A stretch of 64,000 nucleotides of DNA from Nitrosopumilus sp. (GTDB lineage Archaea; Thermoproteota; Nitrososphaeria; Nitrososphaerales; Nitrosopumilaceae), in the NCBI GenBank assembly GCA_965197525.1, contig OZ240211.1:1408001-1472000 (forward strand), in the 5' to 3' direction. The notes beneath the pieces were generated by a model, which was not told where the DNA came from, ran no database searches, and saw nothing but the letters and a program-made list of their open reading frames with translations. Shown piece after piece: positions 12,659 through 50,386 of this stretch (within the stretch, counting starts at the first letter, position 1; every line of letters begins with the position of its first letter). Both the position numbers and the translations under genes were made by a program.

Positions 12659-13024
12659 ATGTCTGTTAAAGAACAATTTATTGAAAATGCTAGACAAGGC
12701 AAAGTATTGGCTCATAAATGCACTAGTTGTGAATTATTACATCTCTCTACGGTATATTATTGTCAAAAGTGCGGTAGTAGCAAGTTTGAAGATGCTATAT
12801 TAAACGGTGTAGGCTCTATTGCTACTTATACTATCATAACTGTAGCTCCTGACGGCTTTGCCAAGTATACACCATATGCCTTTGTTGTACTTGCATTAGA
12901 TGATACAGCTTTAAGAATCTCGGGATTTATGGCAGGAATTGCTACTCCTGATGACTTGCCTGTAGGAACTAGAGCTAAAATTACTGGTTTTGACGAGCGT
13001 GGTATTATAATTGAAAAACAGTAA
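12659..13024 (+). CDS. DUF35 Zn-ribbon/OB-fold thiolase partner
   Basis: CTSC..CQKCG followed by an OB-fold; starts 2 nt after the thiolase stop. Confidence 0.9.
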   Translation: MSVKEQFIENARQGKVLAHKCTSCELLHLSTVYYCQKCGSSKFEDAILNGVGSIATYTIITVAPDGFAKYTPYAFVVLALDDTALRISGFMAGIATPDDLPVGTRAKITGFDERGIIIEKQ

Positions 13025-13093
13025 AATAATTTACCCTAATTATTAAAAAAATCCAAAGTACATTTTAATTATTTTGTATATCTGATTATTTTT

Positions 13094-13255
13094 ATGTCAG
13101 TAGAAATTATTTGTGGAAAATGCGGTGAAAAGATACATAACATGAAGATGCTCAAATCTTTGAAGGATGTACTAAATACATCCGATGGCAAATGTCCATC
13201 ATGCGGCCAAAAACTTTCTACAGCTGAGTTTTCACTTGACGTTCAAGAAAACTAA
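13094..13255 (+). CDS. Small zinc-ribbon protein (53 aa, not in the track)
   Basis: MSVEIICGKCGEKIHNMKMLKSLKDVLNTSDGKCPSCGQKLSTAEFSLDVQEN; two CxxC motifs. Confidence 0.7.
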   Translation: MSVEIICGKCGEKIHNMKMLKSLKDVLNTSDGKCPSCGQKLSTAEFSLDVQEN

Positions 13256-13307
13256 TTTCAAAAACTAGTTTGAATGCATGTAAAAACATCCTCGTCGTAG
13301 TCTAGAT

Positions 13308-13425
13308 GATGGATCGACCCCTTGTGAAACATGTGCTTCGCGCACTTTAGTTTGAATGGGGCAATCCGAGCTGCTGCGTTCCTGTGCTTCGCGCACTGAT
13401 AGGTGATTGCAGCCTCCGATCCATC
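13308..13425 (+). ncRNA. Putative bridge RNA of IS110 copy 1 (target- and donor-binding loops)
   Basis: Outer stem GATGGATCG/CGATCCATC; two internal loops, each with hairpin GTGC-TTCGC-GCAC; loop strands match the element ends and insertion site. Confidence 0.78.
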
Positions 13426-13456
13426 AAAAACAATCCGCAAGGAGGTGATAAAAAGG

Positions 13457-14557
13457 ATGAGAAATATTGGAATAGACATTAGCAAGAGAAAATGCGTAGT
13501 ATGTGTAATGGATGACAAGGGAAGAATACTAGAGGAAACTACATATGACAATACGCTAGAAGATGCAAAAGAGTTTGCAGGCAGGATGAAAAGAGAGTAC
13601 GGCAGGAGAAGAGGACAGTGCCGTGCTGCATGCGAGACTACAGGAAACATGTGGCTCAAGACATTTGAGGCATTTGAGGAACACGACATACCAATCCAGC
13701 TTGCCAACACCTACAAGATGAAGATAATATCAGATACCGACGTCAAGACGGATCCCATCGATGCACGAAAGATTGCCAACATACTTCGTGTAGAGATGAT
13801 TCCCCAGTGTTATGTGGCGCCACCTGCGTTGCGTGATGCCAGAGAGCTGCTCAGGTACAGAATAAGCATGGTCCAGGCAAGGACTGCACTTATCAACTAT
13901 ACACACGGTCTGCTTGACAAGTACGATGTAAGACTGAACGTCTCAAACATGTACAGCAAAAAAGCCATCGGACTGCTCTCACATACAGAACTGAAAAGAC
14001 CAAACGACAACCTGATACTGAAGAACTGTGCCAAAAGAATTGCACATGTCACAGAAGAGATAACAAATGTCGAAACAGAGATAGACAAACAGGCCGCAGT
14101 AAACGATGATGCAAGACTGCTTATGAGCATGACAGGACTGGATGTATTTGCATCAATGCTTGTCGTATCAGAGATTGGGGACATATCAAGATTCAAAACC
14201 CCCGAACACTTGGTCTCATGGGCAGGCATGTGTCCCACCGTCTACCAATCAGGTGATGTAACACATCATGGCCGCATGAAAAAGGCAGCAAACGGAAGAA
14301 TAAACTGGATACTTATTCAAGCAGCAAACGTGGCAGCAAGACACGATGACAAGTTAAAGGAGTTCTATGAGAGATGCAAAAAAAGACATGGCGGCAAACA
14401 TGTGATTACAGTAACACATGTGGCAAACAAGATGATACGAATCATTTGGGCCATACTGACCTTCAGGGAACCGTACAAGTCACGCAATGTACAAAGATAT
14501 GGCAGAAAGATGAAGAGAATGAACAGTGTTCGACAGTCTATGCAGGGCACAGAATAG
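13457..14557 (+). CDS. IS110 DEDD recombinase/transposase
   Basis: GIDISKR, ACETTG, KTDPID (DEDD), GMCPTVYQSG (Tnp-domain Ser); GGAGGTG upstream of ATG 13457. Confidence 0.95.
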   Translation: MRNIGIDISKRKCVVCVMDDKGRILEETTYDNTLEDAKEFAGRMKREYGRRRGQCRAACETTGNMWLKTFEAFEEHDIPIQLANTYKMKIISDTDVKTDPIDARKIANILRVEMIPQCYVAPPALRDARELLRYRISMVQARTALINYTHGLLDKYDVRLNVSNMYSKKAIGLLSHTELKRPNDNLILKNCAKRIAHVTEEITNVETEIDKQAAVNDDARLLMSMTGLDVFASMLVVSEIGDISRFKTPEHLVSWAGMCPTVYQSGDVTHHGRMKKAANGRINWILIQAANVAARHDDKLKEFYERCKKRHGGKHVITVTHVANKMIRIIWAILTFREPYKSRNVQRYGRKMKRMNSVRQSMQGTE

Positions 14558-14688
14558 CCAGCCAGTCACACATCCGTTGCAGTTTTGTTCCTAGCGATAG
14601 CTTTAAAAATATACACGTGTATTGTAGGCGTGGATCGAAGGCCAAATGGAAACCACGCGTGGCTGTGCCCGGATGTTTTAACATAGGT

Positions 14689-16048
14689 GTTTCATAACAT
14701 GCCACAGTTCTGACCCGATTGTATAGCATCTAGCCCATACTTTCATCATACCATTGAGATCACCCTCTGAGTTATGTCTACGAACTGGTTGTAGCGCTGG
14801 ATCTTTAACGCTATCTCTTGAATAATGTTATCCATTGTTTTTGCCCTTACCGAACTTCCAAATATTCTCTTGAACGCAGAGAAGAATATCTCCACCTGCC
14901 ATCGGGAACCGTATTCCGCACGTTTTTTCCACTCGTTTTGGTTTTCCGCACGTTCCTTGATATCCATCTCATGGAATTTGGCAAGGCTTGTAGTGCCGCC
15001 ACCCAGCTGGTCAAGCGCTGCAATACCGCGTTCCCTGCTTATCCCCATTGCCTTGTATTCTGCATTGCGTCTTATCCTGATGATAGGTGTAATGCCGTAC
15101 TCTTTGCATATCTGAAAATTCTCCCTGCTGTCATATCCTGCATCTGCCTTGATCTTAATTTTAACATGATCTGGCGGTGGCCCAGTACCTGCAGCCATTA
15201 CTGTTGCGCGTCGTACATCTGGATCTATTCCCTTGTTCCTCAGTGCCTGTCTTATCAGGGGCTCGAACTGTGGGGAATCACCAATCTTTTCGTCAGTTAC
15301 CGTGAATCCAAGCACCCGCATGGTGTCCTGCTGTATCATGACACTGAGTCTTATGAAACCTGACTTGGTCTTTATCTTGTATTTGTATCGTATGTAGTCG
15401 CCTTTGGCAGACGGGGACATGCCTGTTCCATCTATGATGATCTGCAACACACTGTCTTTGCTCCTGACGGTTATGGTTCTGTCTGTAATGGATGTATCAA
15501 GACTCTTCGTTCTTCTCCACAGGGTAACGTGATCAGGTGCGTTTTCCTCACCCAGTGCAGCTATTGCCATTCCTTCCACACATCTGAATGCAATGCCCAG
15601 CTGTAGACGTATTCCGATTATGGCCATTATCAGGCACTCTGGATAGATGAACGGATGACCGTTTTTGCCTGCATTCATCCGTTTAAGTTCATCTACCATG
15701 TTGTCAGGAAGAACCAAATGTATCATCTTTCCTCGTTCCACATATCTTGCATCATTTTGCGCATGGCTCATGTGTAGCCGCGATTTTTGTTTGGTTCTGG
15801 TACCATCATGCGTCATACCCGTCTACCTCCAGAACGCAGCACATAACTAATTTCGATTAACTTGCTGGAGAAAAGAAACTCACACGTAACATTAAATTGT
15901 CTTCCTGTGAAATATGGTTGGTGCGGATATCCTTTCATTTGTTGTGATCTGAAAGGATATTACGCTCCAGCTCTTTAAATGCGAAAGTTAGTTGCAGTTA
16001 ATCTGCAACTTGAATATCTATGACACTGTTTGTGGCAGGTTATGAAAC
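14689..16048 (-). mobile_element. IS5-family (IS903-like) element
   Basis: 18-bp TIRs GTTTCATAACATGCCACA (14689-14706) and TGTGGCAGGTTATGAAAC (16031-16048), 17/18 match; 6-bp direct repeat AAACTA at 13262-67 and 16049-54 once the IS110 is removed. Confidence 0.85.
14746..15816 (-). CDS. IS5-family DDE transposase
   Basis: PDHVTLWRR, IIDGTG, ADAGYDS, YGSRWQVEIFFSAFKRIFG. Confidence 0.9.
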   Translation of the reverse strand: MTHDGTRTKQKSRLHMSHAQNDARYVERGKMIHLVLPDNMVDELKRMNAGKNGHPFIYPECLIMAIIGIRLQLGIAFRCVEGMAIAALGEENAPDHVTLWRRTKSLDTSITDRTITVRSKDSVLQIIIDGTGMSPSAKGDYIRYKYKIKTKSGFIRLSVMIQQDTMRVLGFTVTDEKIGDSPQFEPLIRQALRNKGIDPDVRRATVMAAGTGPPPDHVKIKIKADAGYDSRENFQICKEYGITPIIRIRRNAEYKAMGISRERGIAALDQLGGGTTSLAKFHEMDIKERAENQNEWKKRAEYGSRWQVEIFFSAFKRIFGSSVRAKTMDNIIQEIALKIQRYNQFVDITQRVISMV

Positions 16049-16165
16049 AAACTATCAAAAACAAAACTAATAAAACAATTTTTCTATTTTTCAAAACAAT
16101 TATTTAAAAATATTTGAAATTATCCAGTCACAAGTCTTATTTACTCCTTTCTTTCAGAAACAACA

Positions 16166-18325
16166 ATGAAATCTAGTGACGATTTTGATGATGACGATAT
16201 AGATGATGATTTTGATGATGACGATATAGGTGATGACGATATAGGTGATGATCTAGATTCTGAACGAAGTGGCATTATGCAATCTCAGTCAAAGCGTGTT
16301 AAGATGATCTTTTCTGTTATGGCAAGTCCAAACAGAATCGATATACTTCGAATACTAAATTCTAAAGGCCCATTAACTTACTCTGAGTTAAAATCACATG
16401 CCGGATTCAAATCAAAAAAGGAAAGTGGCAAATTTGCATACCATTTGAGAAAATTATTACGTCAGTCACTTGTAGCGCTAAACAAATCTGAACGACGTTA
16501 CACTATTACAAATCTTGGAAAACTTGTTTTGAGTTTAGCACGACAAATTGAAGAAAGATCTATTATTGAAAGTGGCAAAATGTATGTTCGCACATCATCT
16601 GACTCAATTGAAGAGTTTAATTCACATAAAATAATTCAATCTCTAGTTCGTGAGGGAGGCCTTGCAGTAGAACTAGCACAAAAAATTACTGAAGAAGTCG
16701 AAAACCGGATTTACAAATATCAGACCACTTATCTTACCGGTGCCCTAATTCGAGAGATGGTTAATTCGGTGTTATTAGAACACGGTCATGAAGAGTATCG
16801 GAACAAACTTGCCCGTCTTGGATTGCCTGTATATGACGTTGAAGAGATGATCTCTAACTCAGATAGTGTTGATAATGGAGCCGAAGATCTGTTGTTTAGC
16901 ACAGGACAGCGAGTATTCACTGAGCATCTTTTAACAAACACGTTATCTAAGGATATAGCCGATTCTCACCTTTCTGGTGATTTACACATTACTAATCCTG
17001 GAATTTGGTCTATTATTCCAGATACAATATTTGTTAACGTTAAAGACTTGATCGAACACGGAATTGATTTTGGTGGGAAATACCTTGATGTATCAAGAAT
17101 TTCTGCATCAAAACATCTTGATGATATTGCAAGTTCATTATCTATAATTATCTCTCTTCTTTCAAAAGAAGCTTCTCAAGAAATTGTACTTGACGGATTT
17201 GTTTCACTGTTTACCAAACATCCAAAATTTTTACCAGATCTTGAACAAAAATTAACGAATATTCTTGCGACTATATCAACAACTTCCAAATATAATAAAA
17301 CTGGCACTGTTATTTCAATTCGTCTACACTTAGGAACTGATATGAAAATTGTCCGTTCCATCATCAATACGTATAGAAACTATACAAAGATGACACCAAT
17401 TCCAAGAATTGGTTTGATAATTGACGTAGATAAAGGAAAGCTAACTGATGTATCGCAAACATTATCTGAAATAATTTCACTTGGTGGCAAGATAACGTTT
17501 GCTAAAGATCAAACATCCAGTTACGGTATTACAAACAATTTTACAAAAACTTCTAGTCCACTCTCAATTGCATTACAATCTGTTTCAATAAACCTTCCAA
17601 GATTAGCATTTGAATCAAATAAAGATGAAACTTATTTTCGTGCAAGACTTGCACTATTAATGAAGCCTGTCCTAATTTCAATGGCATCAAGAAAAAAAGG
17701 GATCTCTGATCTTACCAGACGAGGCCTTAACCCAATTCTTGCTAAAAATACACAACATCTGCAAAGAAGTTCTGTCTCTCTTACTATAAACTTGATAGGA
17801 CTCAATGAAGCTGTTTTTAATATACTTGGACTATCTGATGATAGCCAAGGACGGGATATTCTTCACAAAGTAATTGAAACTGCAGTCGATGTTGGTGCTA
17901 AAAAAGGTAAAGAATTGGGCGAGACTGTATCTATCTCCATGATTGAATCTGACGGTTCTATTCGTTTTGCAGCCCTTGATAGTGAAAAATATGGCAAGAA
18001 CTCTGCTCCAAATCTAATGAAGGACGACTTTTACTCTCAAGGAATTGTATTTACTGCCTCTGATATCTCTGATCTTACTAGTAAAGACGAATCAATTCTT
18101 GAATGCAACAAACTCTTTAAATTACTTAACGGTGGACTACTTGTAACACTAAAGATTGACAACCGCGCCAAGGTTGAGGAGATTAAAAAATCTATAGAGC
18201 AGGCATCTAAACTCTTACCTTCCTTTAAACCTGTAAGACCTAGTATAGTTTGTGGTGAATGCGGTTTTAAAGACGAACCATTTGAAGAGAAATGCCCTCG
18301 ATGTAAATCGTCTTATATTATCTGA
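16166..18325 (+). CDS. ArsR-type HTH + ATP-cone + degenerate class III RNR (NrdD-like) fusion
   Basis: MASPNRIDILRIL..LTYSELK..FAYHLRKL (wHTH); VRTS..SIEEFNSHKI (ATP-cone); HLSGDLHI, SINLPRLA and a C-terminal Zn ribbon (NrdD-like); no glycyl-radical loop seen. Confidence 0.8.
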   Translation: MKSSDDFDDDDIDDDFDDDDIGDDDIGDDLDSERSGIMQSQSKRVKMIFSVMASPNRIDILRILNSKGPLTYSELKSHAGFKSKKESGKFAYHLRKLLRQSLVALNKSERRYTITNLGKLVLSLARQIEERSIIESGKMYVRTSSDSIEEFNSHKIIQSLVREGGLAVELAQKITEEVENRIYKYQTTYLTGALIREMVNSVLLEHGHEEYRNKLARLGLPVYDVEEMISNSDSVDNGAEDLLFSTGQRVFTEHLLTNTLSKDIADSHLSGDLHITNPGIWSIIPDTIFVNVKDLIEHGIDFGGKYLDVSRISASKHLDDIASSLSIIISLLSKEASQEIVLDGFVSLFTKHPKFLPDLEQKLTNILATISTTSKYNKTGTVISIRLHLGTDMKIVRSIINTYRNYTKMTPIPRIGLIIDVDKGKLTDVSQTLSEIISLGGKITFAKDQTSSYGITNNFTKTSSPLSIALQSVSINLPRLAFESNKDETYFRARLALLMKPVLISMASRKKGISDLTRRGLNPILAKNTQHLQRSSVSLTINLIGLNEAVFNILGLSDDSQGRDILHKVIETAVDVGAKKGKELGETVSISMIESDGSIRFAALDSEKYGKNSAPNLMKDDFYSQGIVFTASDISDLTSKDESILECNKLFKLLNGGLLVTLKIDNRAKVEEIKKSIEQASKLLPSFKPVRPSIVCGECGFKDEPFEEKCPRCKSSYII
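16178..16252 (+). repeat. Asp-rich tandem micro-repeat at the N-terminus of the HTH-NrdD gene
   Basis: GATTTTGATGATGACGATATA x2 and GATGACGATATAGGT x2, encoding DDFDDDDIDDDFDDDDIGDDDIGDD. Confidence 0.8.
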
Positions 18326-48837: not shown

Positions 48838-48887
48838 GATTGAACGTATGTGAACACATGTAACCACCCTCCTCCTAGTATCTATGT

Positions 48888-49023
48888 GATAGGCTGACCC
48901 CTAAATCGACATGGGCTTCGCGCCCTTGTGCATGAATGGGGGGGGGGGGGAGAGGAGGAGGATCCGAGCTGCTGTGTTCCTAGGCTTCGCGCCCTGATAG
49001 GTAATTGCAGCTTCCGGTCTGTC
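48888..49023 (+). ncRNA. Putative bridge RNA of IS110 copy 2
   Basis: Same scaffold as 13308-13425 with compensatory changes (GGGC-TTCGC-GCCC; outer stem GATAGGCTG/CGGTCTGTC); G13 plus purine run between the loops. Confidence 0.72.
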
Positions 49024-49055
49024 AGATGAATCCCAAAGGAGGTGAAAATAAAGGA

Positions 49056-50129
49056 TTGACAATAATAGGAACGAAAAAGATAGGAACGAAAAGTGTAGGA
49101 ATAGACATCGGTAAGAGGAGATGTATAGTGTGTATTATGAATGAAGATGGCGCCGTAATGGAGAGAACAGAATATGATAACACGTTTGAAGATGCTACAA
49201 AATTTGCTAAAAAGATAAAACAAGAATATGGAGAGTGCAAAGCTGCATGTGAAACAACCGGTAACATGTGGATAAAAACATTTGAGGCGTTTGAGAGTCA
49301 GAACATACCAATCAAACTAACAAACACATTCAAGATGAAGATAATATCAGAGACTAGTGTAAAGACTGATATTATTGATGCACGCAAGATTGCCGATTTG
49401 GTAAGAGTTGACATGATACCAAGATGCTATGTTGCGCCTGCTGACATACGAGATAACAGACAGCTATTAAGGCACAGGATTAGTCTGGTCCAAGACAGAA
49501 CAAAGGTGATTAATCATGTTCGGAATCTGCTTGACAAGTATGATATCAAAATAGGTGGATCAGAAATACACTCAAAAAAGTCATTGAAACAACTTGCAGA
49601 CACCAATCTTCGTGGAGATAACGATCAGTTCATGCTAAGACAATGCGTCAGACAGATACAGTATCTGAATGATGAGATAGAACATACAGAAGAAAAGATA
49701 GCACAACAAGCTTCAAAAAATGACTATGCACAGATTCTACCTAGCATGACAGGAATAGAGATATTTTCAGCCATGCTTATCGCATCAGAGATTGGAGATA
49801 TCTCAAGATTCAACACTGCAAAACAGCTAGTGTCATGGGCAGGCATGTGTCCACGAGTGTACCAATCAGGTAATACGACACATCATGGAAGAATAAAAAA
49901 AGATTCAAACAGACGAGTCAACTGGATAATGATTCAGGATGCCAACACTGCAGTACGTCATGATGGTATAATGAAGAGATTTTACGAGCAGGTCAAACAA
50001 AGACATGGCGGCAATCATCCAATTGCAATAACACATGTTGCAAACAAGATGATTACGATAATCTGGAATATGTTGACTGCCATAACCACGTACTCTACCA
50101 AAAGTAACGATGTATCAAAGAGAGCTTAA
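49056..50129 (+). CDS. IS110 DEDD recombinase/transposase (C-terminus probably frameshifted)
   Basis: GIDIGKR, ACETTG, KTDIID, GMCPRVYQSG; TTG start after GGAGGTG; the alternative frame near 50100 gives MYQRELKKI, resembling copy 1 YGRKMKRM. Confidence 0.92.
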   Translation: MTIIGTKKIGTKSVGIDIGKRRCIVCIMNEDGAVMERTEYDNTFEDATKFAKKIKQEYGECKAACETTGNMWIKTFEAFESQNIPIKLTNTFKMKIISETSVKTDIIDARKIADLVRVDMIPRCYVAPADIRDNRQLLRHRISLVQDRTKVINHVRNLLDKYDIKIGGSEIHSKKSLKQLADTNLRGDNDQFMLRQCVRQIQYLNDEIEHTEEKIAQQASKNDYAQILPSMTGIEIFSAMLIASEIGDISRFNTAKQLVSWAGMCPRVYQSGNTTHHGRIKKDSNRRVNWIMIQDANTAVRHDGIMKRFYEQVKQRHGGNHPIAITHVANKMITIIWNMLTAITTYSTKSNDVSKRA

Positions 50130-50294
50130 AAAGATCAGTGACGCACAATGATGTAAGACTGGAATGCAATTGAGACAGACATAATGCTGTGAGCAATGGA
50201 TAGTTATCCACACAGGTGTTCACGTCATCCCTTAATCCGTGCCTAACTACAATCCACATCGACCTATCCATAAGCACGAATCAAGAGGGATGTG

Positions 50295-50386
50295 GTATGC
50301 ACTCAGGTCTCATTCGTTTATAGGTGTGATTTTACAGGATGCTACGTTTTTTTGTGCCTACGCAGACACCTGACCTGAGTGCATAC
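50295..50386. mobile_element. 92-bp MITE
   Basis: Perfect 15-bp TIRs GTATGCACTCAGGTC / GACCTGAGTGCATAC; 8-bp TSD GGGATGTG (50287-94, 50387-94); empty-site homolog at 37041-37060. Confidence 0.85.

Follow-up and report, generated by a model that had tools for sequence, protein, structure and literature searches.

Within the 64,000-nucleotide window analysed here (positions 1408001–1472000 of a 2.21-Mb archaeal genome, a single contig of 39.6% GC), a member of the IS110 family of insertion sequences (ISs) lies inside a terminal inverted repeat (TIR) of a resident IS5-family element, referred to below as IS5a. Very probably, a bridge-RNA-guided IS110-group element integrated at a TG core within the left TIR of IS5a, and its lineage uses IS5-family ends as landing sites. 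The guide strands of the IS110 element read the TIR that it interrupts, and sister copies elsewhere in the genome carry guides that match the TIRs of other members of the IS5 family.

The nested elements and their ends

The true extent of IS5a is given by a second full copy, intact, at genome 1061630–1063001, which is 1372 bp long and encodes a transposase 100% identical to that of the window copy. The TIR of this intact copy is 24 bp long (TAGTTTGTTTCATAAC(A/C)TGCCACA), begins with TAGTTTG and matches at 23/24 positions between the two ends; its direct repeat is 8 bp (ATGTAAAC). A DDE_Tnp_1 transposase, TIRs and a fixed 8-bp target-site duplication (TSD) in both full copies place IS5a in the IS5 family, and we take it to belong to the 8-bp-TSD type, ISH1-like in terms of the ISfinder groups. 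The IS110 element of the window (copy A) lies within the left TIR of IS5a, 5–7 bp in from its tip, with its core dinucleotide TG at 13271–72 and 14688–89 corresponding to TIR positions 6–7. Excising 1417 bp, with one TG kept, rebuilds the left TIR exactly as TAGTT-TG-TTTCATAAC. Because an intact 8-bp TSD brackets the whole composite, IS5a arrived before IS110; this order, the integration site, its orientation and its core are established by the comparison. The reconstructed empty site aligns collinearly with the intergenic region of three congeneric species, in which the Zn-ribbon gene and the downstream gene are directly adjacent with no IS between them.

An earlier sequence-only reading of this stretch had recognised an IS110 lying within the left end of an IS5-family element, and the Pfam and NCBIfam matches of the two open reading frames (13457–14557, plus strand; 14746–15816, minus strand) bear this out. 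Its boundaries require correction. It had deleted 1421 bp (13270–14690), and because this is 4 bp too many it arrived at a 6-bp TSD, AAACTA, that is an artefact: the left occurrence consists of the last 4 nt of the TSD and TIR bases 1–2, and the right one is the reverse complement of TIR bases 1–6. The insertion lies 5–7 bp inside the TIR rather than at its tip, the core occupies TIR positions 6–7 rather than the first two bases, and the TIRs, given as 18 bp, extend to 24 bp in the intact copy.

All four IS110 copies in the genome (96.7–100% identical) share their boundaries, with the core TG followed by AATGCATG at the left end and CATAGG followed by TG or CG at the right. As in the IS110 group, they have neither TIRs nor a true TSD, and both junctions carry TG in copies A–C; copy D has TG/CG. 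The recombinase matches Pfam DEDD_Tnp_IS110 (PF01548) and Transposase_20 (PF02371) as well as the NCBIfam model for IS110 family RNA-guided transposases (NF033542; 230.8 bits, cutoff 140). Alignment to the solved ISCro4 transposase shows conservation of its catalytic D, E, D, D and S; IS621 is the second PDB match.

Guides of the bridge RNA and the sister copies

The non-coding region upstream of the IS110 recombinase, from the left end to the start codon, is 184 nt long and is predicted by its minimum-free-energy (MFE) fold to form an RNA with a target and a donor loop, enclosed by an outer stem in which 13307–13316 pair with approximately 13416–13425. In an alignment of 16 relatives, a filtered set from this and other genomes, compensatory changes preserve pairing in the two hairpins, in the outer stem and in the stem of the donor loop. 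An Rfam scan of 13000–16300 assigned no known RNA family to the bridge RNA, and its two weak matches look like chance. As expected of the IS110 group, the loop strands are complementary to the target flanks and to the IS ends. The left target guide (LTG) and right target guide (RTG) jointly read TIR positions 1–15 through 14 Watson-Crick pairs and one G·T wobble, and the exact 15-mer is confined in this genome to IS5a TIRs, with three vacant sites (genome 1061630, 1063001 and 1424054, the last being window 16040–16054) and one occupied site. The arrangement agrees with the bridge-RNA layout of PMC11208160: a sense LTG for the left target, an antisense RTG for the right target, and the core present in both. 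In the donor loop, the left donor guide (LDG) is joined by a candidate right donor guide (RDG), which is placed relative to its hairpin as the RTG is and is assigned by analogy with the IS621 layout.

Four full IS110 copies are present in the genome: copy A in the window, copy B, which is 99.6% identical to A, and copies C and D, which are each about 96.7% identical to A. Their 187-nt left non-coding regions differ by only five substitutions, four of which fall at guide positions 13324, 13325, 13348 and 13350. Variation among the copies at RTG positions 13324–25 follows the right flank or the TIR type. Two LTG positions, 13348 and 13350, covary with the left flank, both in copies A–D and in relatives from other genomes. 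The guides of copies C and D read AACTT-TG on the left and, on the right, TG-TTTCCTAA in C and TG-TTTCCCAA in D. They match the TIRs of IS5b, a second IS5-family element (1425 bp, three full copies, TIR AACTCTGTTTCCTAA), and those of a miniature inverted-repeat transposable element (MITE) of about 131 bp that carries 8-bp TSDs. Copy D sits in a TIR of this MITE at the equivalent position (5 nt plus core), and its RTG, changed to TTTCCCAA, is a perfect fit to the MITE copy that it occupies. The guides of copy C fit the IS5b TIR (AACTC-TG-TTTCCTAA) with one wobble, though copy C sits elsewhere; because it is not inserted in such a TIR, the match is non-circular evidence. With wobble allowed, the copy C pattern has eight matches in the genome, seven of them in IS5b or MITE TIRs.

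A further junction comes from a separate run, in which a contig of a sponge RNA library carries a C-like IS110 right end (with the C variants at 14614, 14618 and 14622) that continues into TTACATGTAACACAGACCACC, the interior of the IS5b TIR. Three independent junctions of IS110 with a TIR are at hand (copy A, copy D and this contig), all at TIR positions 5–7 and with the left end outward. Complementarity of the guides to the target and retargeting by four substitutions are established by these comparisons, which support guide-encoded targeting of IS5-family ends. The sequence-only reading had noted that a guide-like stretch of IS110 matches TIR sequence present at both IS5 ends, as is the case, and its proposal that the guide is tuned to the end of another IS gains more support than it had claimed, from the restriction of the 15-mer to IS5a TIRs, from the fit of sister guides to IS5b and MITE TIRs and from the location of D inside a MITE TIR.

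Several features of these elements can be recorded alongside. The LTG is always trailed by AAUG (13355–13358; TGAATG is kept in all relatives). This AAUG is identical to the initial 4 nt of the IS left end, so that the LTG strand matches the product junction of left target, core and left end; it may act as an extended handshake with the bottom strand. In the IS110 right end, the conserved TTTTAACATA could serve as a promoter element once the ends are joined. Copy D (genome 1599293–1600713) has TG as its left core and CG as its right core, and the base before its left core is C where the guide has U, a configuration consistent with integration across a mismatched core, into a target with a core unlike that of the donor. 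Related IS110s have also left seven relics that retain only the left end (genome 1712320, 2186889, 161833, 2177465, 1812750, 474707 and 1892604). In six of them, the 5 nt preceding the TG core are TAGTT or of AAC type (AACTN, once AACGT), the two tip types of IS5-family TIRs; degeneration prevents such a reading at 2177465. The relic at 1892604 is joined after 46 nt to an inverted 82-bp IS5a end.

Among the IS5-family sequences, the second IS5a copy and a copy of IS5b stand head to tail at genome 1061622–1064442, with the 8-mer ATGTAAAC occurring before, between and after them; two different IS5-family elements apparently inserted one after the other at the same 8-bp site. Inverted pairs of IS5a-like ends (TAGTGTGTTTCATAAC and variants) about 90 bp apart, at genome 223310–223400, 1340661–1340751, 1832866–1832956, 1966307–1966397 and 2142519–2142609, look like a MITE family of about 106 bp derived from IS5a. 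These paired ends differ from the A/B guide pattern by one mismatch, and none of them is occupied by IS110.

Table 1 Features of the nested IS5a and IS110 elements, in window coordinates.
Feature	Position	Strand	Basis
Left 8-bp TSD of IS5a, TCAAAAAC	13258..13265	.	Same 8-mer at 16055–16062; second IS5a copy and MITE copies also have 8-bp TSDs
Outer 7 bp of IS5a left TIR (TAGTT + core TG), separated by IS110	13266..13272	+	Equals TIR positions 1–7 of the intact copy (genome 1061630) and of the right TIR here
IS110-family element, 1415 bp + one TG core copy = 1417 bp inserted	13273..14689	+	Four genome copies share ends
Bridge RNA core: outer stem around target-binding and donor-binding loops, each with a GTGC-YTCGC-GCAC hairpin cap	13307..13425	+	MFE fold, covariation
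RTG, TTGTGAAACA	13322..13331	+	Complementary to TIR top strand TG-TTTCATAA: 9 Watson-Crick + 1 G·T
LTG, TAGTT-TG at 13348–13354, then AATG	13348..13358	+	Equals left target, 7/7
RDG (candidate), GCGTTCC	13376..13382	+	Complementary to (T)GAATGC of the IS left end; 6/7 counting one wobble; one core mismatch
LDG, ATAGG-TG	13399..13405	+	Equals IS right end + core (14683–14689), 7/7; in relatives it is conserved or co-varies (ATAGA-TG types)
IS110 recombinase gene, 366 aa; D7, E60, D99, D102, S265	13457..14557	+	Pfam, NCBIfam; motifs by alignment to ISCro4 transposase
Conserved IS110 right end GGATGTTTTAACATAGG + right TG core	14671..14689	+	Identical in Cenarchaeum sp. and congeneric copies despite differing flanks
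Inner 17 bp of IS5a left TIR, TTTCATAACATGCCACA	14690..14706	+	Continues TIR positions 8–24 of the intact copy
IS5-family DDE transposase gene, 356 aa, intact	14746..15816	-	Pfam DDE_Tnp_1 (PF01609), NCBIfam IS5 (NF033579)
IS5a right TIR, 23/24 vs left TIR; outer 15 bp (16040–16054) are a vacant perfect IS110 target	16031..16054	-	
Right 8-bp TSD of IS5a, TCAAAAAC	16055..16062	.	Matches 13258–13265

Alternative explanations, relatives and genomic setting

Several observations weigh against guided targeting of IS5-family ends. Copy B has the guides of A and lies at a unique intergenic site that is not an IS, where the LTG matches 7/7 and the RTG forms six Watson-Crick pairs, three wobbles and one mismatch; copy C is off-target at another unique intergenic site, with two RTG mismatches. 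Two of the four IS110 copies are off-target and TIR occupancy is low, with only one of the four perfect IS5a TIR targets and no IS5b TIR occupied in this genome. Relatives in Cenarchaeum sp. and in congeners have different guides, flanks and target sequences. The assembled contigs of four public runs contain no circle or excision joint, a type of data that cannot show rare forms, and give no evidence of bridge RNA transcription. The sequence-only reading had held that copies with the same guide at sites unrelated to the IS5 TIR would count against it, and this is so in part: B, with the guides of A, is off-target, and so is C. Because copies B and C lie off-target, TIR targeting is preferential and not exclusive. 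Because relatives in other genomes target other sequences, the trait belongs to this sub-lineage, not to the clade as a whole.

Neither copy B nor copy C interrupts a sizeable open reading frame. The site of copy B has no inverted partner within 3 kb and no other copy in the genome. That it represents a relic TIR cannot be shown; its first 10 bp and TG(Y)CACA resemble the IS5a TIR, and this resemblance is not counted as evidence.

Copies B and C at non-IS sites are what would be expected if IS110 entered any AT-rich sequence resembling its short guides, the IS5 TIR being merely one such site, and with wobble the A/B pattern indeed has 13 genomic matches at no mismatch and 167 at one. Such a coincidence is very unlikely, however, as the exact 15-mer is found only in IS5a TIRs, two more guide variants fit two other IS5-family TIR types, and the three independent insertions in A, D and the contig of the separate sponge run share one TIR position. 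Alternatively, the 2.8-kb IS5::IS110 composite may have been moved as a unit by the IS5 transposase, so that the 8-bp TSD derives from the composite and IS110 never chose this locus; the TSD does enclose the entire composite, which has kept the outer 7 bp of the TIR. We regard this as very improbable, since the composite occurs only once, the TIRs of the other IS5a copy are uninterrupted, and solo IS110 copies exist that are 99.6% identical to A. Even in that case, IS110 must earlier have entered an IS5 TIR.

The lineage might instead target repeats of any kind (palindromes resembling repetitive extragenic palindromic (REP) elements, MITEs or IS ends), with IS5 TIRs being just the commonest here. 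Relatives in Cenarchaeum sp. adjoin inverted-repeat sequences of another kind, and copies in two congeners have other recurrent right flanks in common. A general search for repeats is nonetheless unlikely, as the three guide variants in this genome all point to IS5-family TIRs with TG-TTTC in common, and the substitutions follow the differences among these TIRs; it is also less a competitor of guided targeting of IS5-family ends than a view that overlaps with it.

Scanning the genus for the conserved IS110 right end recovered related elements in seven other genomes, with different right flanks, none of which is recognisably an IS5 TIR. A metagenome-wide search for the junction pattern (IS110 right end, core and TTTY..AA) gave 11 matches, all without IS110 sequence upstream, and these were set aside as chance. 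Copies on OZ242221.1 of Cenarchaeum sp. (L046–L048), with 72% protein identity, have a common right flank, TG-GTTATG(Y)CTGTAGGACACAGCC, that is part of a palindromic or inverted-repeat sequence, and this lineage may also target a repeated element. The window itself holds a second IS110 at about 48850–50330, 57% identical to the first at the amino acid level, whose own two-loop RNA region is broken by a G/GA run (about 48934–48962). Its guides read GTGCA-TG for the LTG and, for the RTG, a strand directed at TG-TCGATTTAGG; neither has a clear match to the flanks of the element.

Among named genomes, the nearest relatives that encode this recombinase are Cenarchaeum sp. and metagenome-assembled genomes of Nitrosopumilus, and sponge metagenomes are among the public runs containing window DNA; on these grounds the host is placed in the Nitrosopumilaceae, probably in association with a sponge. 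The gene downstream of the composite (window 16166–18325) encodes a protein with helix-turn-helix/DUF7347, ATP-cone and NrdD-like parts and an acidic, D-rich N-terminal repeat (16185–16264), the repeat number of which differs among congeners. A weak sR5 snoRNA match in the same repeat region looks like chance.

Proposed mechanism and comparison with known systems

In the sequence of events that we propose, IS5a inserted first, and IS110 then landed in its left TIR, very probably by site-specific recombination at the TG core. By analogy with the biochemistry of IS621, IS110 would excise as a circle in which the right end, TG and the left end are joined, the RNA would bridge the circular donor and the TIR, and the recombinase would swap strands at the core; the bridge RNA is presumably made and acts as in IS621. 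The guide substitutions in the sister copies convert specificity to the TIRs of IS5b and its MITE, and IS5-family ends would serve as repeated, gene-free landing sites that are renewed at each IS5 or MITE transposition. The 1.4-kb separation of TIR bases 1–7 from bases 8–24 would be expected to disable that IS5 end, and precise excision to restore it; IS110 may plausibly affect the mobility of IS5.

Choice of target by a guide RNA is an established property of IS621 and of IS1111-type elements. In common with IS621 (Durrant et al. 2024; Hiraizumi et al. 2024), the element described here has a two-loop upstream RNA, the LTG/RTG and LDG/RDG layout with a core in each pairing, and a DEDD plus Ser site. 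It differs in that the core is TG and not CT, the RTG is longer (core + 8), and the LTG is followed by 4 nt equal to the IS left end, whereas the handshake guides of IS621 adjoin the RTG and RDG. Its natural target is an IS end and that of IS621 a REP element, and similarity between the two proteins is distant (E ~1e-8).

IS1383 of Pseudomonas putida H is likewise an IS110-family element, reported to have the inverted repeats of another IS in the same genome, IS1384, as its specific target (Muller, Lauf & Herrmann 2001, ref. 13 in PMC11208160). That case is bacterial, and its description predates guide RNAs; here the host is archaeal, the guides can be read, and other IS and MITE ends have become the targets of sister copies. 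IS4321 and IS5075, which target the TIRs of Tn21-family transposons, are likewise DEDD-recombinase ISs that enter the TIR of another transposable element, with position and orientation fixed. They belong to the IS1111 group, with subterminal inverted repeats, a guide RNA downstream of the gene and Tn3-family transposons as targets, whereas the present element is of the IS110 group, carries its RNA upstream of the gene and is directed at IS5-family elements and at a MITE. Nesting of this kind goes unmentioned in a recent survey of archaeal ISs.

Targeting of one IS by another is already known in bacteria. New here are an archaeal example in which every guide is readable and a within-genome guide series that follows three types of IS5-family TIR. 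Understanding of the mechanism itself is unchanged by this case. Rather, a single small archaeal genome makes four guide strands, a core, a target and several retargeted sister copies all readable, four substitutions suffice to shift a bridge RNA between target families, and the targeting of IS ends by DEDD elements is extended from bacteria to the Nitrosopumilaceae. It is possible, if rather doubtful, that the IS110 lineage is a parasite of IS5-family elements, with guides that diversify after the TIR variants of co-resident IS5s and MITEs and with a reversible lock on IS5 transposition imposed by splitting the TIR 7 bp from its tip and released by precise exit. With the nested elements it can be tested whether the mobility of one IS is gated by another; if the lock is real, IS110 would regulate how a different transposon moves in an archaeal symbiont.

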